DNA from: Bryobacterales bacterium
GTDB taxonomy: Bacteria > Acidobacteriota > Terriglobia > Bryobacterales > UBA6623
Assembly (NCBI GenBank): GCA_965207035.1
Contig: OZ242259.1
Span: 586,111 to 650,110 of the forward strand
Length of the DNA: 64,000 bases
Direction: 5' to 3'
Shown: piece after piece, positions 4,412 through 46,550 of the stretch
How the letters are laid out: each line of letters starts with the position of its first letter
Numbering within the stretch: the stretch's first letter is position 1
Notes under the pieces: model-generated
The model's database searches: none
What the model saw: the letters and a program-made list of their open reading frames with translations, nothing else
What the model was told of the DNA's origin: nothing
Position numbers and translations under genes: made by a program

Positions 4412-5470
4412 ATGCGACGGCGACTCGGTTTCGGGCTGGCTGCGATGCTTTGCGTTGCTGCCGTCTGCTCCGCTCAGGAACCGGTTTCCGATCCGGACAG
4501 CACCATTCGAGTCGAGGTCAATGTCGTCAACCTTCCGGTCACTGTGACGGACTCCGAAGGTCGATTCATCGTTGATCTGAAGAAGTCGGACTTTTCAGTC
4601 TGGGAAGACGGCCAGCTCGTCGAGATTCGCTACTTCACGCGAAGCGTCGAGGAAGAGAAGAAGCCCCCCCTGCACGCAGGCTTCATCGTTGATCTGAGCA
4701 ATACGGCGCGACTCTACTACAAGACATACCAGACATCCATCGGCGACTTGGCCTGGATGCTTGTGCCCGAGGGTGGGAGGAACAAGGGCTTTCTGTTCGG
4801 CTATCACACCGAGGTCGATGAACTCGTCGATTTCACTGACGATCCCGTGACCCTCACCGAGAAGATGGAGAACCTCAAGCACGGTGGCGGAAGCGCCATG
4901 TTCGACGCCATTTACCGAGCATGCGCAGAGAAGTTGGTTTCCATGCCCTACCAAGGAGCCAGCGAACCGCGCAAGGTCCTGGTAGTCATCGGTGACGGGC
5001 ACGACAATGCCAGCAAGCGATCCATCGACGAAGCCATCCATGCGGCGCAGCTGCACCAAGTCACAATTTATGCCGTGAGCACGGTCGGTTGGGGATACCA
5101 CCATGCGGAGGAGTCCAATCTTTTCAGGTTGGCACGTGAGACTGGTGGCCGGGTGGTTCGTCCCATGCAGAAGGTTCACAAGGATGTCTCTGGCTATCTC
5201 TCAAAGCCACAGGACGCTGGGAATTATCAATACGAAGTTGGTACCGGCGGGTATGCGGCAGCGCAGTTGCAGGCACTCTACGACGCCATATTGAATGTCG
5301 CTGGCAACGTGCAGAGCCAGTACATTCTCGGATATGTTCCCGGCCGTTCGTTTTCGGACCAGCAATTCCGGCAGATCGATGTCGAGTTGAAACTCTCCGG
5401 CGCGGACGTGGAAGTCTACCACCGGCGCGGCTATTTTCCGCCGGTGCCCAGTCCCGAGGAACGGCCCTAG
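4412..5470 (+). CDS. VWA domain-containing protein (acidobacterial VWFA-related type)
   Basis: Signal peptide, then VNVVNLPVTVTDSEGRFIVDLKKSDFSVWEDGQLVEIRYF, which is typical of the acidobacterial VWFA-related family. A VWA fold follows (VLVVIGDGHDNASKRS). Confidence 0.7.
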   Translation: MRRRLGFGLAAMLCVAAVCSAQEPVSDPDSTIRVEVNVVNLPVTVTDSEGRFIVDLKKSDFSVWEDGQLVEIRYFTRSVEEEKKPPLHAGFIVDLSNTARLYYKTYQTSIGDLAWMLVPEGGRNKGFLFGYHTEVDELVDFTDDPVTLTEKMENLKHGGGSAMFDAIYRACAEKLVSMPYQGASEPRKVLVVIGDGHDNASKRSIDEAIHAAQLHQVTIYAVSTVGWGYHHAEESNLFRLARETGGRVVRPMQKVHKDVSGYLSKPQDAGNYQYEVGTGGYAAAQLQALYDAILNVAGNVQSQYILGYVPGRSFSDQQFRQIDVELKLSGADVEVYHRRGYFPPVPSPEERP

Positions 5471-9664: not shown

Positions 9665-10046
9665 TCAGGCGGGCCGGACGCCCTGTAAGCCGGTTTCTGT
9701 ACCCGTCCGGAAACGGGTGGCAGCCATTCATCTCGAACGCTTGTTGCCAAACGCCTCTAGCGACCTACCCGGGACTCAGGCGCGACGGGCAGCCGCGTCG
9801 TCCCCTATTTGGTCTTGCTCCGCGTGGGGTTTACCCTGCCGTCGCGGTTGCCCGCGACGCGGTGCGCTCTTACCGCACCATTTCACCCTTGCCCCGGAGT
9901 CCGGGGCGGTATGTTTTCTGTGGCACTTTCCGTCGACGCCCCCTTGCGAGAACGCCTCCCGGCCGTTAACCGGCACGCTGCCCTGCGGAGACCGGACTTT
10001 CCTCCGTGCCCGAAGGCACCGCGACTGCCCGGACGACCGACCCTCC
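9658..10046 (-). ncRNA. rnpB: RNase P RNA, bacterial type A
   Basis: The minus strand carries GGAGGAAAGUCCGG (reverse complement of 9990-10003), GGGUGAAAUGGUGCGGUAAGAGCGCACC, CCAAAUAGGGG and AGAUGAAUGGCUGCCAC...ACAGAAACCGGCUUA. These are colinear with E. coli rnpB conserved regions. The ends are estimated from P1 pairing and are good to about 10 nt. Confidence 0.9.
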
Positions 10047-35204: not shown

Positions 35205-35270
35205 TCGGTCGACGTGTTCGAGCCTTACGGACGAGAAGCCTGCGGATTCTGGCTCTCCCAGGACCGCAGG

Positions 35271-35277
35271 GGCGGCC
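35271..35277. repeat. attL core (GGCGGCC)
   Basis: It is identical to 44296-44302. The extended similarity is CCGCAGGGGCGGCCTAAGCGGTACTGAG (35264-35291) against CCGCATAGGCGGCCAAGGCGGCACTGGC (44289-44316). Confidence 0.6.
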
Positions 35278-35448
35278 TAAGCGGTACTGAGGCGCTCGGA
35301 GACCCCATTATCAGACCAATTGTCTTTTAACTCACTGGTACTAATAGACTTATGGTCATATAAGGCGAGCATGGCCCGAGGCTTCCCGTTCCTAAAATAC
35401 CTCCGGTCTGCTAGTAAAACGTGGGGTATATCGTGATACGCTGGAGCC

Positions 35449-36633
35449 ATGGCAAGCATTCTTAACGCTCGATCCTGCAAGGCGGCGAGGCCAACACCGG
35501 GCCAGCGATTCACCTACTACGGAGACGGCCTCGGGCATGGCCTCCGCCTCCGCGTCGCTCAATCCGGCGCGAAGTATTGGGAGCAACGGCTCACGGTCAA
35601 CGGCAAGCGGCGGGACCTTGGCCTCGGGCCGTTCCCGGAGATTGACCTAGACGCGGCGCGGGAGCTTGCCCTAGACAACAAGCGGACGGCCCGCAAGGGC
35701 GGGAACCCGCTGGCGAATAGCATCACGTTCCGGGAGGCCAGCGACGCTTGCACGGCCCTTGACGCTGCGAGTTGGAAAACAGACAAGCAACGGCGGGACG
35801 CGGAGGCCATGATGGACCGATGGGCGCTGCCTCGCCTCGGGGCCGTCAAGGTTGCCGCGATCAACCGGGGGGACGTCATGGACGCGCTAGAGCCTATCTG
35901 GATTGATCGGGCAGCGACGGCCAAGCGGGTCCTACAGCGGCTCTCCCGCGTGTTCGATTACTGCGTGGGCCGGGGTTACCGCGACGACAACCCGGCGGAC
36001 GTGGCGATCATGACAGCGGCGCTCCCAAAGCAACCGAAAGCGACGAACGGCAACGGCAACGGCAACGGGGCGGCGCGGCATCATGAGGCCGTCCCCTATG
36101 CGGAGCTTGCCGACGCGCTGGCCAAGGTGGACGCCTCCAGTTCGGGCGCGACCGTCAAGGCGCTGGTCCGCTTTACGGCCCTCACGGCTGCCCGGATCGG
36201 GGAGGCGCGGGGCGCTCAGTGGTCCGAGATTGACCTAGACGGCGCGGTCTGGACGATTCCAGCGGATCGCATGAAGGGCGGGCGGGAGCATCGCGTCCCG
36301 CTGGCCGATGCGGCTGTGGCGATCCTCCGCCAACAGCTTGCCATCCGGCCCCGGCGCTGCCCGTTCGTGTTCACTGGCACGGCAGGGCGGACTATCGGGG
36401 AGGGAACAGTCCGTAAGCTGTTCCGGTCGCTCCAGACCATCGGGGACCCTCACGGCCTACGCTCCAGCTTCCGCGATTGGGCGGCAGAGAATACCGAGGC
36501 CCCCCGCGAAGTGCTGGAGACGTGCCTAGCGCATGTTGTCGGCGGCAAGGTCGAGCGGGCCTATGCACGGACGGACCTGCTGGACAAGCGGCGGGCCGTC
36601 ATGGACGCTTGGGCCGACTATCTGGCCCGCTGA
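35449..36633 (+). CDS. int: tyrosine-type site-specific integrase (P4/CP4-57-like, DUF4102 N-domain)
   Basis: N-terminus YYGDGLGHGLRLRVAQSGAKYWEQRLTVNGKRRDLGLGPFPEIDLDAARE. Catalytic region ARIGEARGAQWSEID, HRVPL, HGLRSSFRDWAAE and ERAYARTD (R..HxxR..Y). Confidence 0.9.
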   Translation: MASILNARSCKAARPTPGQRFTYYGDGLGHGLRLRVAQSGAKYWEQRLTVNGKRRDLGLGPFPEIDLDAARELALDNKRTARKGGNPLANSITFREASDACTALDAASWKTDKQRRDAEAMMDRWALPRLGAVKVAAINRGDVMDALEPIWIDRAATAKRVLQRLSRVFDYCVGRGYRDDNPADVAIMTAALPKQPKATNGNGNGNGAARHHEAVPYAELADALAKVDASSSGATVKALVRFTALTAARIGEARGAQWSEIDLDGAVWTIPADRMKGGREHRVPLADAAVAILRQQLAIRPRRCPFVFTGTAGRTIGEGTVRKLFRSLQTIGDPHGLRSSFRDWAAENTEAPREVLETCLAHVVGGKVERAYARTDLLDKRRAVMDAWADYLAR

Positions 36634-36653
36634 CACTCAGGACGGTCCCACAG

Positions 36654-36689
36654 CGGCCCCCGGAGCCAATCTGACGGCCTCGGGGGCCG
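36654..36689 (+). terminator. possible stem-loop after int
   Basis: CGGCCCCCG (36654-36662) pairs with CGGGGGCCG (36681-36689) around an 18-nt loop, followed by TTCGTG. The loop is large and the U-tract poor, so this is weak. Confidence 0.25.
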
Positions 36690-36835
36690 TTCGTGCGTCT
36701 AGGGGTCCGGGAGCGATTGGCGGCGAGTACAGCGTCTTGGCAGAGCACGCGAGGCCCCAGTCGCTCCCGGTTCGGGCGATCCTCGCGGTAATGGTCTTCG
36801 CCCCGAGGATCGGCCCGAGCCTCCAGAGTACCCCC

Positions 36836-36881
36836 GATTGGCGATGGCGGGCAGTGATTGGCGATGGCGGGCAGTGATCGG
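36836..36881 (+). repeat. tandem 20-bp repeat pair, set 1 (GATTGGCGATGGCGGGCAGT x2 + GATCGG)
   Basis: Perfect tandem copies at 36836-36855 and 36856-36875. The whole ~46-bp block recurs at 37386-37431. Confidence 0.9.
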
Positions 36882-36941
36882 CCCCGGCCAATCGGAGGCG
36901 CAGTCTACCCCAATGGACGGCGGAGCGGGTCCGGGGTGGAC

Positions 36942-37301
36942 CTAGCTCTTAGGTCCAGACCGCAGCGCCTCGGCGGTGTGCGTCAACAGGATTGTCCGGC
37001 TGTCCAAGTATGGGGCGGGGTTGGCCTCGCGTTCGGCTTCCATTAACCCCAGACGGGCGCTATGCCAAGCGACTGATCCGTACCGTACCGTGTCCGATCG
37101 GTTCCCGGATGCCCTGACAATCCAATGCAGCAGTCGTATCAGGGGCGATGGCAGTCTCGTCTCTTGTAACCGTCTCGCCATGGCCCCAGAGGCAATGTCA
37201 TGAGGGCCGACGGTGGGAGACGCTGCCGTCATGCGGACGCCTCCGGGGGAACGGCGAGACGCGCTGACGTTGACCTGTGCTAAGTTGGGGGTCTGGGTCA
37301 T
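36942..37301 (-). CDS. hypothetical protein between the two repeat sets (possible island regulator; coding status uncertain)
   Basis: This is the only non-low-complexity ORF in 36.64-37.85 kb. An internal ATG would give a 79-aa product starting MARRLQETRLPSPLIRLLHW. There is no clear SD and no recognisable domain. Confidence 0.25.
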   Translation of the reverse strand: MTQTPNLAQVNVSASRRSPGGVRMTAASPTVGPHDIASGAMARRLQETRLPSPLIRLLHWIVRASGNRSDTVRYGSVAWHSARLGLMEAEREANPAPYLDSRTILLTHTAEALRSGPKS

Positions 37302-37385
37302 GGCGGGGCTTCGCCTTTGATCCTTGACGCCTCGGAGCTTGGGTCAGTTCCGGGGCGTTTTCATTGATCGCCTCCAGCTTACCTC

Positions 37386-37431
37386 GATTGGCGATGGCGG
37401 GCAGTGATCGGCGATGGCGGGCAGTGATCCG
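37386..37431 (+). repeat. tandem 20-bp repeat pair, set 2 (GATTGGCGATGGCGGGCAGT, GATCGGCGATGGCGGGCAGT, GATCCGG)
   Basis: It is a direct repeat of set 1, 550 bp downstream and in the same orientation. Confidence 0.9.
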
Positions 37432-37439
37432 GCCCCCTG

Positions 37440-37600
37440 CCGCAAGACCCCCCGGCCCGTCCCGCAAGACCCGTCCCGCTAGACCCCTCCCCTGCCGCAA
37501 GACCCGTCCCCTGCCCGTGGGGGGGGGGGGAGGGTGTGTCAACATGGCACACCCTCCCCGGCCCCCGGCCCCCTGCCGTTAGACCCCTGCCGCTAGACCC
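37440..37600 (+). repeat. array of six direct CCG(C/T)(A/T)AGACCC 11-mers flanking a G12 tract and a 12-bp inverted repeat
   Basis: The 11-mers lie at 37440, 37462, 37476, 37495, 37576 and 37590. The G12 tract is at 37519-37530. GGGGAGGGTGTG (37527-37538) and CACACCCTCCCC (37548-37559) are perfect inverted arms with a 9-nt spacer. Confidence 0.9.
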
Positions 37601-37628
37601 CTCCCCGTCCCGGTCCCCTCCCGGTCCC

Positions 37629-37688
37629 GATCCGTCCCGATCCGTCCCGATCCCTCCCCGATCCGTCCCGATCCGTCCCCGATCCGGG
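37629..37688 (+). repeat. tandem decamer array GATCCGTCCC (about 5.5 units, two 11-nt variants)
   Basis: Read directly from the sequence: gatccgtccc gatccgtccc gatccctcccc gatccgtccc gatccgtcccc gatccggg. Confidence 0.9.
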
Positions 37689-37782
37689 CAAAACGGACCT
37701 TGGGGACCCCTGCCCCGGACCCGCTCAGGGTAGAGCAGCGTAGCGGCTTAGGGACGAGCTAACACACCCCCACGGGGGGCCG

Positions 37783-37834
37783 GATTCCCCATAACCGCGT
37801 GTGGGGAATCACTGACGGCCATTTGGCCGTCAAT
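37783..37834 (+). promoter_or_regulatory. composite control element upstream of terL: 9-bp-stem inverted repeat + 20-bp palindrome TGACGGCCATTTGGCCGTCA
   Basis: GATTCCCCA (37783-37791) and TGGGGAATC (37802-37810) form the inverted repeat. The palindrome is at 37813-37832 and ends 26 nt before the terL ATG. The palindrome recurs at 39753-39772 and 44109-44128. Confidence 0.6.
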
Positions 37835-37858
37835 TTCGGGCCGGGGCGAGCCTGAGAT

Positions 37859-39424
37859 ATGGGAACCCCCAACACGGCCTCCGCGCTGATCCGCTACCTA
37901 GAGACGCTGACCTGCACTCAGGGCCAAGGTGCGGGCGATCCGCTGGAGGTCCTGCCGTGGCAGCGGCGGTTTATCAGGGGCGCATTCTCGGGGCCGGGGG
38001 ACGCGGCCCTGAGCGTGGCAAGGGGGAACGGCAAGACAACGCTGCTGGCCGGGGTCGCTGCTGCGTTCGTGAATGGCCCGCTCAGGCAGCCTCGGGCGGA
38101 GGTTGTGATCATCGCGGCCAGCTTGGCTCAGGGCAAAATTTCGTTTTCCCACACGCGGGCATTCTTGGAGGCGAGCGGTTGCGACCTGACGGCGCGCAAG
38201 CTGTGGAAATGCCACGACGGCGTCAATAGTGCGAGCATCGAGCATCGGCCCTCGGGGTCCCGCGTTCGGGTTATCGGATCGGACCCCAAGCGGGCGCACG
38301 GTCTGGCCCCCGCGCTGATCCTCGCCGATGAACCCGCGCAATGGCCCCCCAACACGGCTGAGGCCATGGTCGCGGCCCTCAAGACCGCTCGGGGCAAGAT
38401 TCCCGGCGCGAAGATGATCGCGCTAGGGACGCGGCCAGCGGAACCCGATCATTGGTATCAGCGGATGCTAGACGGGCAGGGCGTCAGCTACGCGCAATCC
38501 CATGCGGTCCCCTCCGGGACCGGGGACGCGATGCTCGGGCAGCGTGGATTTTGGCGCAAGGCGAATCCGTCGCTCGGGTTCATGCCAGACCTAGAGGCCG
38601 CGATCCGGGACGAATGGTCAACGGCCAGCAGGGACCCGTCGCTGCTGGCCTCATTCAAGGCATTACGCCTGAATATGGGGGTCCCGGACGTTCTGGCCTC
38701 AAGCCTACTGGAGGCGGAGACGTGGCGGCGCATCGAGGCCCCGGAGGGCCAAGGCGTCGAGCGGCGCGGGCCGTGGGCGCTCGGGGTCGATTTGGGCAGT
38801 ACAGCGGCCATGTCTGCCGTGGCGGGGTACTGGCCCGAGACGGGCGCATTGACGGCCCTTGCTTGCTTCCCGGCAGACCCTCCGCTGGCGGATCGGGGAC
38901 GGCAGGATGGGGTCGCTGACCTGTACGTCCGCATGGCGGAGCGGGGCGAGTTGATTATAGCGGGGCGCTACGTCTCGGAGGTCCCCGCGCTGTTGCGGGA
39001 GGTTGTGGACCGATGGGGGGTCCCGGACGTGATTGTCTCGGATCGCTGGAGGCTCGGGGAATTGCGGCAAGCATTGGAGGCGGCAGGTATGCCCAGGACG
39101 GCCCTTGCCACGCGGGGGCAGGGGTACTTTGACGGCGGGGCGGACGTGCGGGAGTTCCGTAAACAGTGCGCCTCGTTGGCCGTGCGGCCTGACGTTTCGC
39201 TGCTGCTGCGGGCCGCGATGGCGGAGGCCCGCGTTCAGACTGACGCGGCTGCTAACGCGAAGCTGGCGAAGGGTTCCGAGGGGGGACGGCGGCGGCGGGC
39301 GAGGGATGACGCGGCGGCGGCTGCGATCCTCGCAGTAGCGGAGGGGACCCGTAGGGCCGGGACCGGGACCGGGACCGGGGACAGCGACGGGACCCCACGG
39401 CGGAGGCTGCGAGTATGCGCGTAG
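37859..39424 (+). CDS. terL: phage terminase large subunit
   Basis: Walker A context SVARGNGKTTLLAG and a Walker B-like LILADEPAQW. The C-terminal nuclease-half length is typical of the Terminase_1 family. Total 521 aa. Confidence 0.8.
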   Translation: MGTPNTASALIRYLETLTCTQGQGAGDPLEVLPWQRRFIRGAFSGPGDAALSVARGNGKTTLLAGVAAAFVNGPLRQPRAEVVIIAASLAQGKISFSHTRAFLEASGCDLTARKLWKCHDGVNSASIEHRPSGSRVRVIGSDPKRAHGLAPALILADEPAQWPPNTAEAMVAALKTARGKIPGAKMIALGTRPAEPDHWYQRMLDGQGVSYAQSHAVPSGTGDAMLGQRGFWRKANPSLGFMPDLEAAIRDEWSTASRDPSLLASFKALRLNMGVPDVLASSLLEAETWRRIEAPEGQGVERRGPWALGVDLGSTAAMSAVAGYWPETGALTALACFPADPPLADRGRQDGVADLYVRMAERGELIIAGRYVSEVPALLREVVDRWGVPDVIVSDRWRLGELRQALEAAGMPRTALATRGQGYFDGGADVREFRKQCASLAVRPDVSLLLRAAMAEARVQTDAAANAKLAKGSEGGRRRRARDDAAAAAILAVAEGTRRAGTGTGTGDSDGTPRRRLRVCA

Positions 39425-39732
39425 GCTCAGGGCAACCGCTTACAGGGAATCCACGGCCCCTGTATCGGCCAGACCTGCACGGGCGGCGCTGGCAAGCGAT
39501 CCGGCGGGCCGTGCTGCTGCGGGACCGCTACCGCTGTAGAGTGTGCCTTCGGGCGGCGAGGCTCGAAGTTGACCATATCCGGCCCATCCGGCAGGGCGGC
39601 GAGGCGTGGAACCTAGCGAACCTCCAGACCCTCTGCCGTGGCTGCCACATTGACAAGACACGGCGCGAGAATACCGGGCGGAGGCGCAACCGCTTGCCTC
39701 CCGGATGGGACGCGCTGCTGCTGGAATTGTAG
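39415..39732 (+). CDS. HNH endonuclease
   Basis: CRVCLRAARLEVDHIRPIRQGGEAWNLANLQTLCRGCHIDKT is an H-N-H motif with CxxC pairs. It overlaps the terL stop by 10 nt. Confidence 0.85.
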   Translation: MRVGSGQPLTGNPRPLYRPDLHGRRWQAIRRAVLLRDRYRCRVCLRAARLEVDHIRPIRQGGEAWNLANLQTLCRGCHIDKTRRENTGRRRNRLPPGWDALLLEL

Positions 39733-39752
39733 GACCCGCTTGGCCCGTTTAC

Positions 39753-39772
39753 TGACGGCCATTTGCCCGTCA
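39753..39772 (+). promoter_or_regulatory. second copy of island palindrome (TGACGGCCATTTGCCCGTCA) upstream of capsid gene
   Basis: It has one mismatch to the perfect palindrome and shares the flanks ACTGACGG...CGTCAAT. It ends 40 nt before the capsid ATG at 39813. Confidence 0.55.
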
Positions 39773-39812
39773 ATCGAGGGCCGCTGATACCGTGAGGCTT
39801 GGAGGTTGCCTG

Positions 39813-41066
39813 ATGACTAACAGACAACGCTTGGAGCTACGATCCTCAGAGATTCGCAGCCGCTTGAATGAGATCGCGGGCCTAGAATCCGAGGCCCTAA
39901 CGGATGAGATTCGCAGCGAATCGGACAAGCTGCAAGGCGAGTATCGGGGCGTCGAGACTCAGCTACGCGCTGCCATTCTGGCGGAGGGCGGAGACGGCAA
40001 GGGGGGCGATGGTTCCCCACAACCGCGTGTGGGCAATGACGGGAACCCCGAGGCCCCCGAGGATCGGGAGCTACGCTCCCTGATCGGCAAGGCGTCGCTG
40101 GCAAGCATCGCTGACGCGGCGCTAGAGCAGCGCAGCACGGACGGCGCGGAGGCGGAGCTACAGCAGCACTTGGGGCTAGGGCCGTCTCAGGTCCCCGTCG
40201 AGTTGCTGCGAGGCGATCCGCTCCCGGAGGCGCTGGAGACGCGGGCCGTAACTCCCGCACCGGCTGATACTGGCGTCTCGCAAGCGGCGATCATTCCCTA
40301 TCTGTTCCCGCGTTCGGCGGGCGCATATCTCGGGGTCAGCAACCCCACGGTCCCCGTAGGGGAGCGGCTGTTTCCCGTGCTGACTACCCCGGCAACGGTC
40401 CACGCTCCGGCCAAGGATGCGGACGCGGCGGAGACTACGGGCAGCTTCGCCACAACGGCCCTGAAACCGGCGCGGCTGCAAGCTGAGTTCTTTTTTAATC
40501 GGGAAGATTTGGCGACGTTCGCCGGAATGGAGGCCGCGCTGCGCCAGAATCTCGGGGACGCGCTGGCCGACGCGCTGGACGGCAAGATCATAGGGCAATT
40601 CTTCGCGGCCTCGGGGGGTCTGGCGAACCCCACGAACCCCACGGCAGAGGCTACGTTTTCGACCTATCGCGGCCAGCTATTCGGAGGCATTGATGGGCGC
40701 TACGCCAACACGGCGGCTGACCTGCGCTGGCTGGTCAACAGCGACACATACAAGCATCTTGCCTCGAAGTATCGCGGCAACACTGCCGACGATTCGGCCC
40801 TCGATTCGCTCATGCGCGTCTCGGGCGGGGTCCGCGTCTCAACGCACATTCCGGCCAAGGCGGGCAACGTCAGCGGGTTCCTAGCGTCCAAGGCGGGCGC
40901 ACGCGGCCAGAATGCGGTCGCTCCGGTCTGGCAGGGGGTCAGCCTGATCCGCGACGAATTCACCAAGGCCGACCGGGGTCAGATTCGCTTGATCGCGGTC
41001 ATGCTCTACAGCGTGGCAATTCTCAGGGCCGATGGATTCCAGCGGCTCGAAGTTCACACGGGTTGA
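39813..41066 (+). CDS. phage major capsid protein, HK97 family
   Basis: GGAGG at 39801-39805, then ATG 39813. N-terminal coiled-coil delta-like region (RQRLELRSSEIRSRLNEIAGLE...). The C-terminal part ...WQGVSLIRDEFTKADRGQIRLIAVMLYSVAILRADGF is typical of HK97-fold MCPs. Confidence 0.8.
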   Translation: MTNRQRLELRSSEIRSRLNEIAGLESEALTDEIRSESDKLQGEYRGVETQLRAAILAEGGDGKGGDGSPQPRVGNDGNPEAPEDRELRSLIGKASLASIADAALEQRSTDGAEAELQQHLGLGPSQVPVELLRGDPLPEALETRAVTPAPADTGVSQAAIIPYLFPRSAGAYLGVSNPTVPVGERLFPVLTTPATVHAPAKDADAAETTGSFATTALKPARLQAEFFFNREDLATFAGMEAALRQNLGDALADALDGKIIGQFFAASGGLANPTNPTAEATFSTYRGQLFGGIDGRYANTAADLRWLVNSDTYKHLASKYRGNTADDSALDSLMRVSGGVRVSTHIPAKAGNVSGFLASKAGARGQNAVAPVWQGVSLIRDEFTKADRGQIRLIAVMLYSVAILRADGFQRLEVHTG

Positions 41067-41092
41067 TGGATAACCCGTGCGGAGACTGACGG

Positions 41093-41707
41093 ATGGAACG
41101 GCTAGAAACTGGCGATGCTTTTGTCCTGAGCGTCCCTGAGCTTGAAATCCGGCGGGGTAGGGGCGGCGGCGGCGGGGCGGGTCGATACGTCCTTGGCCGC
41201 TTCCCCTACGGAGTCACGGCAACGATACGGGACCGGGGACGCCTCCGCAAGGAACGGTTTGGGGTCAAGGCGTTCGCTCGGGCAATCGAGCGGGCGGAGG
41301 AGGAGATTAACCTCTTGGCCGGTCACAATTTCGGCCAGCCGCTGGCCTCCAAACGGGCCGGGTCGCTGAAGCTGGACGATACCCCCGAGGCCCTGACATT
41401 CGAGGCCAAGCTGCCCGACAAGGGGCCGTCATGGATTGAGGATACGGTTCTGGCGCTGGAGGCCGGGTTGGCCGTGGGCGTCTCGCCGGGATTCCGTGTG
41501 CCTCCGCTCAACGTGGTCCCGGACGCGGAGGTCGAGGTCCCGGAACCCGGCAATCCGGGGGTGTTTATCCGGCAGATCAATCAAGCCATGCTTTACGAGT
41601 TGTCCATCGTGACGCGACCCGCTTACAGCGCCTCCAGCGCGGAGGTCGAGGCGCGGGCCGTTGCGTACAGCTTCGCCGATCCTGAGCGGAGGCGGCTATG
41701 GCTGTAA
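41093..41707 (+). CDS. HK97-family prohead protease
   Basis: YGVTATIRDRG...ERFGVKAFARAIE....INLLAGHNFGQPLA...L.LDDTPEALTFEAKLPD matches the S78/U35 prohead protease layout (conserved H in the LxxH block). It lies adjacent to the capsid gene. Confidence 0.65.
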   Translation: MERLETGDAFVLSVPELEIRRGRGGGGGAGRYVLGRFPYGVTATIRDRGRLRKERFGVKAFARAIERAEEEINLLAGHNFGQPLASKRAGSLKLDDTPEALTFEAKLPDKGPSWIEDTVLALEAGLAVGVSPGFRVPPLNVVPDAEVEVPEPGNPGVFIRQINQAMLYELSIVTRPAYSASSAEVEARAVAYSFADPERRRLWL

Positions 41708-42030
41708 TGGACCTAGCGGCGCTGTATGAGGCCGTCACGCTCAACGCGGGGCCTCCAAGCGGCCCCGAGGCTGCCCGCTGGGAGTCGCTGTATGCGGGTG
41801 CCTGGGCGATTATTGACAGGTATGCTCCCGAGGCCCCCGAGGGCGTCAAGAATGAGGCGCTAGTCCGTTTCGCGGGGTACGCGGCGGACGTGCAAGGCGT
41901 CACTAAAGAGGCCATCGGGGAGCAGTCGGTAGAGTACACGGACCGCACGTCCCCGGCAGTATTCAGGCGATCCGGCGCGATGGGGTTGCTGTCCCCGTGG
42001 AAACGGCGGCGGGCCGGGAGGATCGGCTGA
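41698..42030 (+). CDS. gp6-like head-tail connector (adaptor) protein
   Basis: 110 aa, overlapping the protease stop. The ...AGAWAIIDRYAPEAPEGVKNEALVRFAGY... pattern is typical of the phage gp6-like head-tail connector family. Confidence 0.55.
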   Translation: MAVMDLAALYEAVTLNAGPPSGPEAARWESLYAGAWAIIDRYAPEAPEGVKNEALVRFAGYAADVQGVTKEAIGEQSVEYTDRTSPAVFRRSGAMGLLSPWKRRRAGRIG

Positions 42031-43088
42031 TGCGCTGGCCGTGGCAACGCTCCGAGGCCGACGCGCTGGAGACCCGCGACGCTGACTACAGCGACGCGAT
42101 AGTCGGGCAGATTCTACGCAACGCTACGGGCGGGGAACCCGCAAGCATGTACGCGCTGGCCGCGCTGGAGGCGGCGGCGGGAATCGTGGGGCGATCCTTC
42201 GCCGTTGCGTCCGTCCAGTCGGCCTCGGGTCTGGTAACGGAGGCGCTGCCCCCCTCCCTGCTGGCCCTGATCGGTCGCTCCCTGATCCGGCGCGGGCAGC
42301 TTGTCTGTAGCATCGAGACGACGGGCGGACGCCTTGCGCTGCTGCCCGCTGCAAGTTGGGACGTCCAAGGCGGGCCAGACCCTCGAAGCTGGCAGTACCG
42401 CCTCGAATTGGGGGGACCCTCGGGCAGCGTCACGCGGCGCAATCCGGGCGAGGGCGTGATAGACCTGAGGTATAGCTGCGATCCGGCGCAACCATGGCGC
42501 GGCCTCGGGCCGCTACAGGTTGCGAGGCTAGACGGGCGGCTAGGTTCCGAGTTGGCGGCGGCGCTCGGAGACGAGGCGGCAGGGCCTCGGGGTTCGCTGC
42601 TGCCCGTACCGGGCGAGGGCGGAGACGGGGAATTAGACGAGCTACGGGCCGATATCGCGGGGTTGCACGGCAAGGCGGCGCTGCTGGAAACCACTAGCGG
42701 CGGATGGGGCGAGGGCAAGGGCGCGGCCCCTCAGCAGGATTGGACGCCTAAGCGGCTCGGGCCGAATCCTAGCGCGGCGCTGGTACAGCTCCGCCGGGAC
42801 GTTGAAACGTCCGTGGTTGCCGCGTGTGGCGTCCCGCTGGAATTGCTGACTCCGGCTGCTGGAACAGGCGGACGCGAATCTTACAGACGCTTCCTATTCT
42901 CGACTGTGGCCGCGCTCGGGCGCATCGTTGCGGACGAATTGACCCGCAAGCTGGAGACGCCAGTATCGCTCGACTGGGGCGAGCTACGGGCGGCGGATAT
43001 CTCGGGACGGGCGAGGGCCTACCAGTCGCTAGTCGGGGCCAACATGGACGCCTCCAAGGCGGAGCGACTGGCGGGTCTGCTGGAGTAG
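42030..43088 (+). CDS. phage portal protein (HK97 family, short form)
   Basis: TGATG overlap with the adaptor stop (42028-42032). The central and C-terminal regions ...RESYRRFLFSTVAALGRIVADELTRKL... are portal-like. Confidence 0.65.
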   Translation: MRWPWQRSEADALETRDADYSDAIVGQILRNATGGEPASMYALAALEAAAGIVGRSFAVASVQSASGLVTEALPPSLLALIGRSLIRRGQLVCSIETTGGRLALLPAASWDVQGGPDPRSWQYRLELGGPSGSVTRRNPGEGVIDLRYSCDPAQPWRGLGPLQVARLDGRLGSELAAALGDEAAGPRGSLLPVPGEGGDGELDELRADIAGLHGKAALLETTSGGWGEGKGAAPQQDWTPKRLGPNPSAALVQLRRDVETSVVAACGVPLELLTPAAGTGGRESYRRFLFSTVAALGRIVADELTRKLETPVSLDWGELRAADISGRARAYQSLVGANMDASKAERLAGLLE

Positions 43089-43104
43089 ATAGGGGGTAAC
43101 TGGG

Positions 43105-43425
43105 ATGCACTCAAACTGCTGTATCACCTGCGGGGCGTCGCTGGCAGGGTTCCGCTCAAATCGGAGATTCTGCGAGCCTTGCATGGTGCGATGGAATCGC
43201 GAGAGGAAAGGCCCCTACGACCGGGAGCGGCGGGCGCGGGAGCGGGAGCTACGCGGCAAGCGGACGTGTGCTGGTCTTGGCTGCGAGGTCGATATCACGA
43301 ACACGCACGGCAGGACCCTCCGCTGTCCCGATTGTGCGCGGGAGCGGGCGCTGGAGGGGAACCGGCGGAGTAGCGCACGATGGGCGGCGCGTAAGCGGGA
43401 GCGGGCAGCCAAGCGGGCAGCCTAG
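43105..43425 (+). CDS. Arg-rich double zinc-ribbon protein (106 aa), function unknown
   Basis: Two Cys pairs per half: CCITCG...CEPC and CAGLGC...CPDC. A strongly basic RERRARERELRGKR linker and tail suggest nucleic-acid binding. Confidence 0.55.
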   Translation: MHSNCCITCGASLAGFRSNRRFCEPCMVRWNRERKGPYDRERRARERELRGKRTCAGLGCEVDITNTHGRTLRCPDCARERALEGNRRSSARWAARKRERAAKRAA

Positions 43426-44069
43426 CGGGCCTCGCGGGCCTCGGCAAGGTTGATCCTCGCCTCCCATCCCTGAGCGGACAGCGACGGGGCGCACGTGCGG
43501 GCCTCGCGGCCCTCCCTGACGCGATCCTTGACGGCGGCTGCCCAATTGCCCGATACCTGAGCGACGGCCCCGGCCAGCGTCTCCAGCAGGGCGTCCAGTT
43601 CGGCTGCCTCCAGTTCGGCTGCCTCTAGGTATTCGATGGCCCCGCTCAGGAGGCCGTCAAACCTCCAGCTTGCGCGGCTGCCGTCCCCGAATTCGGACGC
43701 GGCAACCTCCGGGGCGAGGCGGCGGAGTTCCACGGCCCCGGCCAGCAGTTCGTCGGGCGAGCGAATCAGGCGCGGCGCTAGGAATGCGCGAGCCTCCAGC
43801 AGTCGGCCTAGGGCGTCCCGCTCCATGGCGTCGAGGCGATCCGAGACTCCCCGGCCAATCGGGGCGCTGCCCCGGATGCGCGCCAACAGCGACCGCTCCG
43901 GGCCATCGTAAAGCGTCTCGGCCTCGACTAGTTCCGGCGGATCGCTCGGGGCAGGGTCCCGCAGCACGGTAGCGCAGCGTTCCCCCGTCTCCGCATCGTG
44001 CCAGCATCGCAGCGTGAGGCGCGGCGTGGGGTGCAGGTCAATGTCCATGATCCGGTTTGTAGTGAACAT
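43422..44069 (-). CDS. hypothetical protein, reverse-oriented island gene
   Basis: ORF 43422-44180 (TTG). The ATG at 44069 (MFTTNRIMDIDLH...) is preferred because it leaves the palindrome at 44109-44128 in the upstream region. The protein is helical and acidic, with no recognisable domain. Confidence 0.5.
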   Translation of the reverse strand: MFTTNRIMDIDLHPTPRLTLRCWHDAETGERCATVLRDPAPSDPPELVEAETLYDGPERSLLARIRGSAPIGRGVSDRLDAMERDALGRLLEARAFLAPRLIRSPDELLAGAVELRRLAPEVAASEFGDGSRASWRFDGLLSGAIEYLEAAELEAAELDALLETLAGAVAQVSGNWAAAVKDRVREGREARTCAPSLSAQGWEARINLAEAREAR

Positions 44070-44108
44070 GCCCAACAGTGTATCGCGGGGCCTCGGGGCC
44101 TCGGGGAT

Positions 44109-44158
44109 TGACGGGCATATGGCCGTCAGTGATTCGGGACAACCGCGTGAGGGGAACC
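44109..44158 (-). promoter_or_regulatory. third copy of island palindrome (TGACGGGCATATGGCCGTCA) plus flanking AACCGCGTG module
   Basis: The palindrome is at 44109-44128, 39 nt upstream of the minus-strand ATG at 44069. The adjacent GATTCGGGACAACCGCGTGAGGGGAACC matches 22/28 with the module at 37783-37810. Confidence 0.55.
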
Positions 44159-44295
44159 CGCTACTCCCGAAAACGTGCAAGATGGGCGGTTTTTTTTGGT
44201 GTGGGGGCGTGTGGGGTATCGGGGTCCCCGGTACTCTCCCGAATAGGACCCTAAACTATTGATTTATAAAGACCTTAGAGGCCATATCCCGCATA

Positions 44296-44579: not shown

Positions 44580-46550
44580 CGGTAGTTTACGGGCTTTCGT
44601 CGCTGTCGTGGGGGTAGGGCCCGCGAAGTGATTCCATCCACAGCAGTTACCAGTCGGCGCTCCATCCTCTTTTGTATTACCCTATATGAGATTCTGGATC
44701 AATTCCTTTGAGAATTGCTTGCATTCGCTTCCATGGTGTTCTAGTATTACCCTATATGGCATCCATCGTCGGCAAGAAAAAGGGCAACCAAACCTACTAC
44801 TACGTCGTCACCTCCGGCCGCGTCAACGGCAAGCCCCGCATCACCCACCAAACCTACCTCGGTACCGCCGATCGACTCGCCCAACTCGTCCGCGACAAGG
44901 CCGCCCCCATCCCTCTCGAGGCCACGGCCCGCGACGCCGGCCTCCCGGTCGCCCTCTGGCAGGCCGCCCAACTCTCCGGCACCCTCGACGCCCTCCTCTC
45001 CGTCTGGCCCGCCCCTAAACGCGGCCCCTCCATCCCCCATTTCCTGCTCCTCGCTGCCTTCCACCGCATCTGCGCACCAGGCCCCAAGACCGAGGTCGCC
45101 GACTGGTACCGCCACTCCGTCCTCGCCGACCTGTGGGGCTTCGCCCCCAGCCTCTTCTCCTCCCAGGCCTTCTGGGACCATTTCGACGCCATCGACGTCA
45201 GCGCGGCGCTCACCGAGCCCTCCTCTGACGAACTCGAGCAGGCCCAGCTGGCCCTGCTGCAGGCCTTCCGCGCCCGCGACCTCGTCAGCCAACGCGTGCT
45301 GGCCTACGACACCACCAATTTCCACACCTGGATCGGCACCACCAACACCCGCAACCAACTCGCCCAGCGCGGACACAACAAGCAGAAGCGCCACGACCTG
45401 CGCCAGATCGGCCTCAGCTACGCCCTCGACGGGCAGCACGGCCTCAGCCTGTGTCATCACGTCTACCCGGGCAACGTCACCGACCGCGACGAGTTGCCGG
45501 CCTGCCTCGGGCGCATCACGCGCCTGCTCGACGGGGCGTCGATTCCGCGCGAGACGGTCACACTGGTGTTGGACAAGGGCAGCGCGGCGCTGGCCAACAC
45601 CCTGGCCCTGCAGGCCAGCGGGCTGGGCTGGATCGCAGCGCTGCCGTGGGACCAGGCCCCGGCCGCGCTGCGCTCGCGTGCGGTCGAGGAGTTGGCCGCG
45701 GTGCCTGGCGAGCCCGGCCTGCGGGTCGGGTCCGAGCGCACCCTGGTGCACGGGGCCGAGTATCTGGGCGTGCTCCGGCATTCGGCGGGTTTCGCCGCCG
45801 AACAGTTCCAGAGCGTGACCCTGTCGCTGGCGAAGGCGACGCAGAAGCTGCGGGCCCTCGCGCGGGAGATCGGCCAGCCCCGGGACCGGCACACGGAACA
45901 GGGCTTGCGCAACCGGATCCAGCGCTGGCTGCGGCCGAACTTCGTTTCGCAGGCGCTGAGTTACACGCTGCGGCGCGGCGCGGACCGCAGTTGGGACCTG
46001 CAGTTCGCGATCGACGCGGAGGCGCTGCACCGGCTGTTGACCGAGCGCTTCGGGCGGACCACGCTGGTAACCAACCGGCTGGACTGGAGCGCGGCCGAAG
46101 TGGCCACGGCCTACAACGGCCAGCAGCACGTGGAGCGCGTGTTCCGCGGCCTCAAAGGCGGGGACTGGCTGGGATGGGGGCCGCTGCACCACTGGACCGA
46201 CAGCAAGATCCGGGTGCATGCGTTTTACTGCCTGTTGGGGGTGTCGCTGATGCAGTACCTGTACCAGCAGGCACAGGCTGCGTGGCCGCTGTTGACCATG
46301 GAAGGGCTCAAGCACGAACTGGGGCAGATCCAGCGCATCGACCTGCTGTATCCGCCGCTGGGGGCGAAGGGACCGCCGCGGGTGGCGACCATCACGTCGA
46401 AGCAGACATTGACCCAAGCGGCCCTGGTGTCCGAACTGGGATTGGAGAAGCTGCTCAAGACCGACGGTAGGTAATACAGCCAGCCCACACCTAACTGACT
46501 CTGAGCCAGTACGTTACAACTATTTTTCCTTCAACTTCAGTAAACTACCG
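44580..46550 (+). mobile_element. insertion sequence, 1,971 bp, 11-bp perfect terminal IRs (CGGTAGTTTAC), 4-bp CTAG target duplication
   Basis: IRL 44580-44590 and IRR 46540-46550 (GTAAACTACCG). CTAG lies at 44576-44579 and 46551-46554. It carries a single DDE transposase ORF. Confidence 0.8.
44756..46474 (+). CDS. DDE transposase, IS4-superfamily (IS1634-like)
   Basis: The N-terminus MASIVGKKKGNQTYYYVVTSGRVNGKPRITHQTYLGT resembles the IS1634-family N-terminal pattern. 572 aa. The 556-aa antisense ORF is GC shadow. Family assignment is tentative. Confidence 0.75.
   Translation: MASIVGKKKGNQTYYYVVTSGRVNGKPRITHQTYLGTADRLAQLVRDKAAPIPLEATARDAGLPVALWQAAQLSGTLDALLSVWPAPKRGPSIPHFLLLAAFHRICAPGPKTEVADWYRHSVLADLWGFAPSLFSSQAFWDHFDAIDVSAALTEPSSDELEQAQLALLQAFRARDLVSQRVLAYDTTNFHTWIGTTNTRNQLAQRGHNKQKRHDLRQIGLSYALDGQHGLSLCHHVYPGNVTDRDELPACLGRITRLLDGASIPRETVTLVLDKGSAALANTLALQASGLGWIAALPWDQAPAALRSRAVEELAAVPGEPGLRVGSERTLVHGAEYLGVLRHSAGFAAEQFQSVTLSLAKATQKLRALAREIGQPRDRHTEQGLRNRIQRWLRPNFVSQALSYTLRRGADRSWDLQFAIDAEALHRLLTERFGRTTLVTNRLDWSAAEVATAYNGQQHVERVFRGLKGGDWLGWGPLHHWTDSKIRVHAFYCLLGVSLMQYLYQQAQAAWPLLTMEGLKHELGQIQRIDLLYPPLGAKGPPRVATITSKQTLTQAALVSELGLEKLLKTDGR

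Follow-up and report, generated by a model that had tools for sequence, protein, structure and literature searches.

In phage P4, ori and crr provide type I iterons at two separate sites, which are bound by the alpha primase-helicase, and an extended cos of the lambda type is composed of cosQ, cosN and cosB. The origins of Staphylococcus aureus pathogenicity islands (SaPIs) consist of 6–12 short iterons lying directly 3′ of rep, in fragments of about 320–370 bp (PMC9371898), and in HK97 the TerS bound at cos stalls the packaging motor (PMC9410871). Phage-inducible chromosomal islands that form capsids (cf-PICIs) are integrase islands that carry genes for HNH, TerL, capsid, protease and portal proteins and no tail genes (bioRxiv 10.1101/2022.09.08.507074). 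Here we analyze a stretch of 64,000 nucleotides (the window) from a Bryobacterales bacterium (contig OZ242259.1, positions 586,111–650,110 of the forward strand), which contains an integrated island of about 9 kb (approximately 35250–44250; coordinates are those of the window). Between the genes for integrase (int) and the large terminase subunit (TerL) of this island lies a repeat field (37386–37690), which a preliminary description had taken for a candidate cos/pac or terminase-recognition region. We tentatively prefer to read it as an origin-type iteron field in the cis-acting control region of a satellite-like, capsid-forming island that has no rep gene, and we propose a conserved motif beside it as the recognition core of a cos-like site.

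How does this locus compare with the known systems? Like the origin of a SaPI or another phage-inducible chromosomal island (PICI), the field is about 300 bp long, is built of short element-specific repeats and lies between the slot of the replication module and the packaging genes. It differs in that the window has neither rep nor pri, in its GC-rich central hairpin and in the single direction of its repeats, the units of which are 10–11 and 20 nucleotides (nt) long instead of the penta- and hexamers of SaPIs. P4 is also a satellite with iterons at two separated sites, comparable to the pairs of 20-mers that stand 550 bp apart in the window around a conserved non-coding segment; however, P4 encodes its own alpha protein and makes no capsid proteins, and there is no sequence similarity. 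With the cos of lambda and HK97, the locus shares a conserved core by the terminase gene that is flanked by element-specific repeated sites, as well as a TerL of the HK97/HNH type, whereas the field adjoins the core at the flank opposite the terminase gene, is unconserved in the closest relative (locus L001) and comes with no identified TerS. The closest described kind for the family to which the island belongs is the capsid-forming PICI. Integrase, HNH, TerL, capsid, protease and portal genes are present in the island without tail genes, as in cf-PICIs, and alpA and rep are carried by most relatives of the island too. The family differs from cf-PICIs in size, in gene order and in having no recognisable TerS: the window island measures about 9 kb against about 15 kb and has the order TerL–HNH–capsid–protease–orf110–portal, terS, alpA and rep are recognised neither in it nor in L001, and its head–tail connectors were not identified. 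The family is hosted mainly by uncultured bacteria that live with sponges and come from many phyla.

Repeat elements of the field

All repeat elements listed in the preliminary description are present (Table 1; TRF, Tandem Repeats Finder) and exceed chance by far. The field is the most repeat-dense and the most C/G-skewed stretch of the 64 kb, in which tandem arrays are nearly restricted to the island. It begins with a pair of 20-mers. A second pair, previously overlooked, occupies 36836–36882; the two pairs lie in 54-bp direct repeats that are 93% identical and enclose a segment of 496 bp, and their 19-mer occurs in four perfect copies in the window against 0.11 expected. The pair is followed by 11-mers of the consensus CCGYWAGACCC, which start at 37440, 37462, 37476, 37495, 37576 and 37590, all on the plus strand, and vary at two positions only. 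These six copies in 64 kb compare with 0.20 expected, and none of 100 shuffles reached six; the copy at 37576 is a variant, CCGTTAGACCC, that had not been spelled out before. Between the fourth and the fifth of them, a G12 tract runs into a perfect inverted repeat, which can be extended to arms of 22 nt (37520–37541 and 37545–37566) with 86% complementarity. The last element is an array of decamers spaced by 10–11 nt, in which perfect GATCCGTCCC units start at 37629, 37639, 37660 and 37670. The field also contains an internal duplication, not mentioned earlier, of 37448–37492 and 37562–37606 (82%). It had been placed immediately upstream of TerL, but in fact stops 168 nt short of the ATG at 37859.

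Table 1. Features of the island from int to the HNH gene, in window coordinates.
Feature	Position	Strand	Details
P4-type integrase (int)	35449–36633		
54-bp direct repeat, copy 1	36832–36885	+	holds 2.3 tandem 20-mers (GATTGGCGATGGCGGGCAGT); TRF, repeat family D1
Non-coding segment shared with L001	36890–37258		about 370 bp, 77% identical; blastn, alignment
54-bp direct repeat, copy 2	37382–37435	+	includes the 20-mer pair flagged earlier
20-mer pair	37386–37429		TRF: period 20, 2.2 copies, 95% matches
Four CCGCWAGACCC 11-mers	37440–37505	+	starts 22, 14 and 19 nt apart
G12 tract	37519–37530		runs into the central palindrome; together 37519–37566
Perfect 12-bp inverted repeat, GGGGAGGGTGTG-N9-CACACCCTCCCC	arms 37527–37538 and 37548–37559		
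Two further 11-mers (CCGTTAGACCC, CCGCTAGACCC)	37576–37600	+	spacing 14 nt
Decamer array, GTCCCGATCC	37624–37686	+	TRF: period 10, 6.1 copies, 90% matches, score 101–112
Family-conserved 11-mer, GGGGACCCCTG	37702–37712	+	sole copy in the window; proposed core of a cos-like site
Predicted DNA end (cos cleavage)	37750–37780	+	would fall at ...TTAGGGAC/GAGC or ...CACGGGGGG/CCGG; analogy with L055, L179 and L187/L185
Stem-loop GATTCCCCA-N10-TGGGGAATC and palindrome TGACGGCCA-tt-TGGCCGTCA	37783–37832	+	likely promoter/operator module
TerL, HK97/HNH-cos type	37859–39424	+	521 aa; PHROG phrog_9, E 2e-58; Pfam TerL_nuclease
HNH endonuclease	39415–39732	+	Pfam PF01844, E 1.5e-10; PHROGs; overlaps the TerL stop codon

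The strand asymmetry reported previously, with a C-rich plus strand, is borne out. GC skew falls to −0.46 in the field, the GC content is 74–77%, and C outnumbers G by 131 to 66 in 37436–37700 and by 74 to 30 in the 141 nt of 37560–37700. The field harbors the stretch of the window most prone to form G-quadruplexes (G4) or i-motifs (G4Hunter −1.66 over 100 nt; standard deviation in the window, 0.25), and canonical C3+N1-7 motifs cluster at 37448–37470 and 37598–37652. In DNA folds, the central palindrome is the sole stable element. An intrinsic terminator was rejected, as a T-run is missing after the hairpin, and so was a known RNA family, as only sub-threshold, miRNA-like matches were obtained from Rfam; no sigma-70-like promoter was found in the field.

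Between the two 54-bp repeats lies a segment that nhmmer finds only in the window and L001 (36890–37258). It is judged to be non-coding because the mismatches between the two elements have no codon periodicity and its indels, which are not multiples of three, produce frameshifts that compensate one another. A protein from a minus-strand open reading frame (ORF) of 119 amino acids (aa) at 36942–37301, which has no family match, was rejected. On both sides of the segment, each element has direct repeats (54 bp in the window and about 28 bp in L001, where the whole region spans 4870–5310), the units of which share the core CGATGGCGG in opposite orientations relative to the segment, and a partial repeat copy, GGCGATGGCAG, is found inside the segment in both.

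Replication genes and repeat fields in relatives

There are 2089 homologues of TerL at E < 1e-20; identity to the best one is only 71%. Single-protein locus searches with TerL returned nothing and an alignment query was needed; 244 loci (L001–L244) were fetched from genomes, IMG/VR and metagenomes. The family elements are about 9–11 kb long and carry int, TerL, HNH, capsid, protease, orf110 and portal genes. The core from TerL and HNH to portal is common to metagenome-assembled genomes (MAGs) of Alpha- and Gammaproteobacteria, Dehalococcoidia and other Chloroflexota, Vicinamibacterales, Longimicrobiales, Bryobacterales, Binatia and Acidimicrobiia, with 50–60% TerL identity across at least eight phyla; many of these MAGs derive from sponge microbiomes, and it is mostly in sponge-associated MAGs that the elements occur. 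Some genomes carry multiple copies (at least seven in one Rhodospirillaceae MAG), and some family contigs, about 10 kb in length, are circular in the assembly. In most relatives, the interval from int to TerL holds AlpA-like genes and replication genes; AlpA-like genes were found in 22 loci, and matches to Pfam PF05930 also occur in relatives.

Tandem arrays are three- to fourfold enriched in the 1.5 kb upstream of TerL (0.08–0.13 per 500 bp against about 0.03 elsewhere). In addition, a perfect palindrome of at least 8 bp accompanied by a 7-mer occurring at least three times is present within the 200 nt 5′ of the conserved motif GGGGACCCCTG at 8.0% of 112 loci and in 1.2% of 1120 control windows, which is an approximately sevenfold enrichment at the motif. 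In the relatives, fields of this kind reach from the stop codon of a replication gene to the motif. In L077, the TerL of which is 48% identical and belongs to the same subfamily, a repeat field of about 330 bp comprising more than one repeat family starts from the 3′ end of a D5_N/DUF5906 helicase gene: AACCCTACACC iterons occur in both orientations together with a second family, and the last AACCCTACACC ends 13 nt before GGGGACCCCTG, the corresponding gap in the window being 15 nt. In L134 and L217, a Prim-Pol+VapE gene is followed by five copies of GTGAGGC, an AT-rich stretch and three copies of GCCTCAC. An AAA_25 helicase gene precedes short iterons and a palindrome in L210, L097, L236 and L135/L157; the field of L097, with at least six TTCCAACGG units, all in one direction, and then a palindrome, resembles that of the window. 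The 21–26-bp arrays of relatives, similar in size to the 20-mers of the window, adjoin or sit inside initiator-like genes (HTH_36, Replicase+PriCT). These fields next to replication genes have the arrangement of SaPI/PICI origins. As the window field matches them in slot, size (about 300 bp) and build (short direct repeats of several families around a palindrome), we tentatively read it as origin-type.

As a separate observation, 22-bp iterons occur five times inside HTH_36 initiator-like genes of L010 and L005, at about −1130 to −980 from TerL, where they are translated as peptide repeats. This arrangement is reminiscent of phage lambda, whose origin lies within gene O.

The closest relative, L001 (71% TerL identity), shares the gene order of the island, sits in a peptidase gene and lacks rep. 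Its DNA similarity to the window extends from int to portal, but 37245–37766, with the whole field, has no counterpart in it by blastn, and no tandem repeats were found upstream of its TerL. The repeat units of the window gave single chance matches only in the 244 loci; neither the decamer pair nor the 11-mer pair was found in IMG/VR, and the 19-mer had one isolated match elsewhere, in an unrelated context. The TerL-upstream regions of 80 genome loci were mostly without tandem repeats. The preliminary description had proposed a comparison with homologous islands, holding that absence or non-conservation of the field there would count against a packaging signal, and the repeats are indeed absent from L001 and unconserved in the others. 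This absence does not oppose an origin, since iteron sequences differ between elements, as origin specificity predicts.

A conserved motif and a proposed cos-like site beside the field

The expectation of a packaging-type signal in the intergenic region is supported, but the conserved element proposed as that signal is the 11-mer GGGGACCCCTG, which lies outside the coordinates that had been flagged; it starts 12 nt past the end of the flagged field (37690) and 15 nt past the decamer array. For a cos site, one expects conservation in related elements and a constant position with respect to the terminase gene, which is true of the 11-mer at 37702–37712 and not of the field. Allowing one mismatch at most, 40 of 129 family loci have GGGGACCCCTG upstream of TerL; its orientation never differs, it usually lies 40–75 nt before the TerL start, and L001 keeps it despite having no field. 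None of its columns varies across 36 non-redundant loci from many phyla, while the flanks do. The sequence is held whatever reading frame or stop codon overlaps it, and it therefore acts at the nucleic-acid level. In a distant subfamily (TerL 32–39% identical), GGTCCCAATG(CC) takes the equivalent place in 81 of 114 loci. The assignment of TerL to the HK97/HNH cos type stands: its nearest phage TerLs, with about 27% identity, are the HK97-like ones of HK75, mEp390 and HK633, that of Rhizobium phage 16-3 and those of staphylococcal HNH-cos phages, and for this reason a cos mechanism is expected. As previously stated, no TerS gene was found beside TerL.

Ends of contigs of some relatives fall near the same place. 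Among the 45 non-redundant family contigs with an upstream end within reach, six end 1–33 nt upstream of the TerL start against about 0.15 expected, and such ends in relatives cluster about 20–40 nt 3′ of the motif, outside any repeat field. The 11-kb contig L179 starts 17 nt before TerL and carries an Illumina adapter, AGATCGGAAGAGCA, at its other end, a mark of DNA with a fixed physical terminus. L187 starts where the identical contig L185 reads through, 39 nt after a variant of the motif and right after a G-run, and the contig of L055 breaks 23 nt after the motif. Taken together, the ends of L055, L179 and L187/L185 are located 23–39 nt past the motif and directly behind a G-run. The idea that contigs of about 10 kb are packaged linear genomes was rejected as a general one, as L243 and L244 break at the end with the attachment site (att) and int, the end of L244 sitting in a tRNA gene; the pile-up of ends applies to some contigs and is not universal. 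Judged from these sequences, the motif and the G-run suggest a cos-like site at which DNA is cut just downstream of the motif, and GGGGACCCCTG is proposed as its recognition core. By analogy with the relatives, the cut in the window would be at about 37750–37780. The claim that the repeats themselves are the packaging signal is not upheld, with contig ends lying 3′ of GGGGACCCCTG and the repeat units unfound in other loci and IMG/VR.

A possible origin-type field and its alternatives

If the field is an origin, an initiator would bind the phased short repeats, that is, the 11-mers 14–22 nt apart and the decamers 10–11 nt apart, and a further set, bipartite in layout, would consist of the 20-mer pairs at 36836 and 37386. 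The excised circle would start replication next to cos and give rise to concatemers, which the TerL and HNH proteins of the island would cut at the adjacent site (37702 to about 37780). Since the island encodes no rep gene, the initiator would be supplied in trans by a helper phage or a co-resident relative, or the field would be a recently orphaned origin.

Several points weigh against this interpretation. No rep, primase or alpA gene was found in the island, and L001 lacks both rep and the field. The center of the field is a G12 tract with a GC-rich hairpin rather than an AT-rich unwinding region, and all repeats point one way, unlike those of SaPI origins. The 10-mer GACCCCTGCC (37582–37591) of the field recurs in the region of the cos-like motif, which hints at a link with packaging. 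An association speaks for the origin, as 9 of 13 loci with arrays have a rep-like ORF that ends no more than 600 nt upstream of the motif, against 14 of 83 array-less ones, but it is biased, the seed proteins having been partly drawn from array-bearing loci. By sequence, the field would be a non-canonical origin, as three of the four features of SaPI/PICI origins fail: it does not lie directly 3′ of a rep gene, as the fields of L077, L134, L210, L097, L236 and L135 do; it has no central AT-rich region; and its iterons are not opposed on two sides, a trait shared by the unidirectional field of L097. The fourth feature, 6–12 short element-specific iterons, is present (six 11-mers, about six decamers and two pairs of 20-mers).

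A bolder version makes the island a non-autonomous mini-satellite that has lost its own regulator and replication genes and retains the module for capsid and packaging, with an orphan iteron field fused to cos and an initiator that would be borrowed from a co-resident full-length relative or from the helper phage. A co-resident donor is plausible because several family genomes carry many copies, yet we consider this version as a whole quite unlikely. In a variant of it, the unidirectional, C-rich and G4/i-motif-prone array might be a brake that terminates packaging beside cos.

Could the field belong to the packaging site after all? It may assist an extended cos as an array peculiar to this element, on which terminase is loaded or arrested beside the conserved core. 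Such an array would compare with cosB or cosQ of lambda, or with TerS as a roadblock at the cos of HK97. Packaging would then proceed from cos rightwards through TerL, so that the field would be the last 300 bp or so to enter the capsid and could hold the motor back shortly ahead of the final cut, much as the TerS of HK97 bound at cos stalls the motor (PMC9410871). The field ends 12–15 nt from a conserved motif near mapped DNA ends, TerL is of an HNH-dependent cos type, and an unusual mode of recognition is plausible where no TerS is encoded beside TerL. Moreover, GACCCCTGCC, which recurs in the motif region, is part of an 11-mer unit, and there is a resemblance between the 11-mers and the motif's right half (AGACCCCTGCC against GGACCCCTGCC). 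However, L001 has the motif without the field, half-sites of the motif are not enriched around it in 35 relatives, and repeat units of array-bearing relatives match their own motif at six or more of seven positions in 14% of cases, compared with 15% for random 7-mers. In relatives, such fields track rep genes and not TerL, and in most of them the 110 nt 5′ of the motif are coding or unrelated sequence. We regard an accessory role in cos as unlikely.

It is also improbable that the field has no current function, being either a minisatellite-like product of slippage and unequal recombination of C-rich seeds in the gap left by lost alpA and rep genes, or a decaying relic of an origin. Its absence from L001 and from all other fetched loci fits such a history, as do its low-complexity, C-rich sequence and the duplication of units together with spacers (periods of 14, 19, 10 and 21 nt) and of a 45-nt block, which is typical of slippage; no partner protein for the field was identified. 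On the other hand, arrays are nearly absent elsewhere in the window, the position and architecture match the functional-looking fields of relatives, and the repeats are highly regular, whereas a relic older than the split from L001 (TerL 71%) should have decayed.

Finally, a role in transcription or DNA structure, either as a Rho-loading (rut-like) insulator that keeps transcription from the int side out of the packaging operon or as a G-quadruplex/i-motif block that stalls polymerases, is very unlikely: the C-rich, G-poor 37560–37700 and the G4/i-motif-prone stretch, traits of base composition only, and the location upstream of the putative TerL promoter/operator module speak for it, but no promoter-like site was found upstream of the field, relatives show no comparable C-rich block, the 20-mer pairs and the palindrome are left unexplained, and minimum-free-energy folds show no gain over shuffles (z −0.14 and +1.08).

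Genes and surroundings of the island

The 1.2 kb between int and TerL contain no convincing gene. Downstream of TerL and HNH follow, in order, the gene for an HK97-fold capsid protein (true ATG at 39813), an S78 protease gene, a conserved ORF of 110 aa (orf110) and the portal gene, then a zinc-ribbon protein gene and a leftward ORF of 215 aa. Searches of Pfam and PHROGs revealed no tail genes in the island, and terS, alpA, rep, primase and helicase genes were not recognised in it with Pfam, PHROGs and NCBIfam. The left neighbour of the island is a beta-lactamase-family gene, and on the right lie an insertion sequence (IS) transposase gene and then a sulfatase gene. The IS element directly to the right encodes a DDE_Tnp_1 transposase of 588 aa (44708–46474). 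No tRNA was found in the window, nor any direct repeat of at least 11 bp between the island ends that would mark an att core; repeats of the GTGGGGTAT type lie close to either end (35421 and 44222) and also 5′ of int in L001. Elsewhere in the window, a bacterial class A RNase P RNA lies on the minus strand at 9670–10040 (285 bits) in an ordinary host context.

The zinc-ribbon protein (106 aa, 43105–43425) has two CxxC pairs and Arg-rich repeats, and it may be a candidate for a substitute of TerS. Small zinc-ribbon or Arg-rich proteins are encoded directly upstream of TerL or of the motif in L244, L041 and L064. The idea that one of the small ORFs preceding TerL in relatives encodes a TerS was rejected, as these ORFs are heterogeneous and yielded no family.

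A module of about 50 bp 5′ of TerL, consisting of a stem-loop with the core TTCCCCAYAACCGCGTGT and the palindrome TGACGGCCAttTGGCCGTCA, is likely the promoter/operator module of the TerL operon. Its order is inverted before the leftward gene at the right end (44103–44155), and a copy of the palindrome precedes the capsid gene (39752–39775). Related sites are those at 37783–37832, 39752–39775, 40010–40035 and 44103–44155 in the window and at 4811–4828 and 7550–7567 in L001. The 18-nt core of the module also occurs inside genes, in the N-terminal region of the window capsid gene as an in-frame insertion of 27 nt (GSPQPRVGND) and in the HNH N-terminus of L001 (DSPQPRV); in L001 the core is coupled to a different palindrome, ACCGCCattgGGCGGT.

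Significance

The repeats alone are a modest finding; the family-wide motif and the rep-less state of the island deserve more attention. Across a very large family of small islands that encode capsids, the sharply bounded and invariant GGGGACCCCTG flags where the packaging operon starts, and it offers a concrete cos candidate for elements that have never been cultured. In this family, replication-origin fields stand directly against the cos-like site, so that the signals for replication and packaging form one compact cis-acting block. If the field of the window is functional, its pristine iterons without rep imply replication in trans, an extra layer of dependency among satellites; and if the island is indeed a mini-satellite with a borrowed initiator, it would parasitize a parasite, in a family of satellites with members in at least eight phyla.

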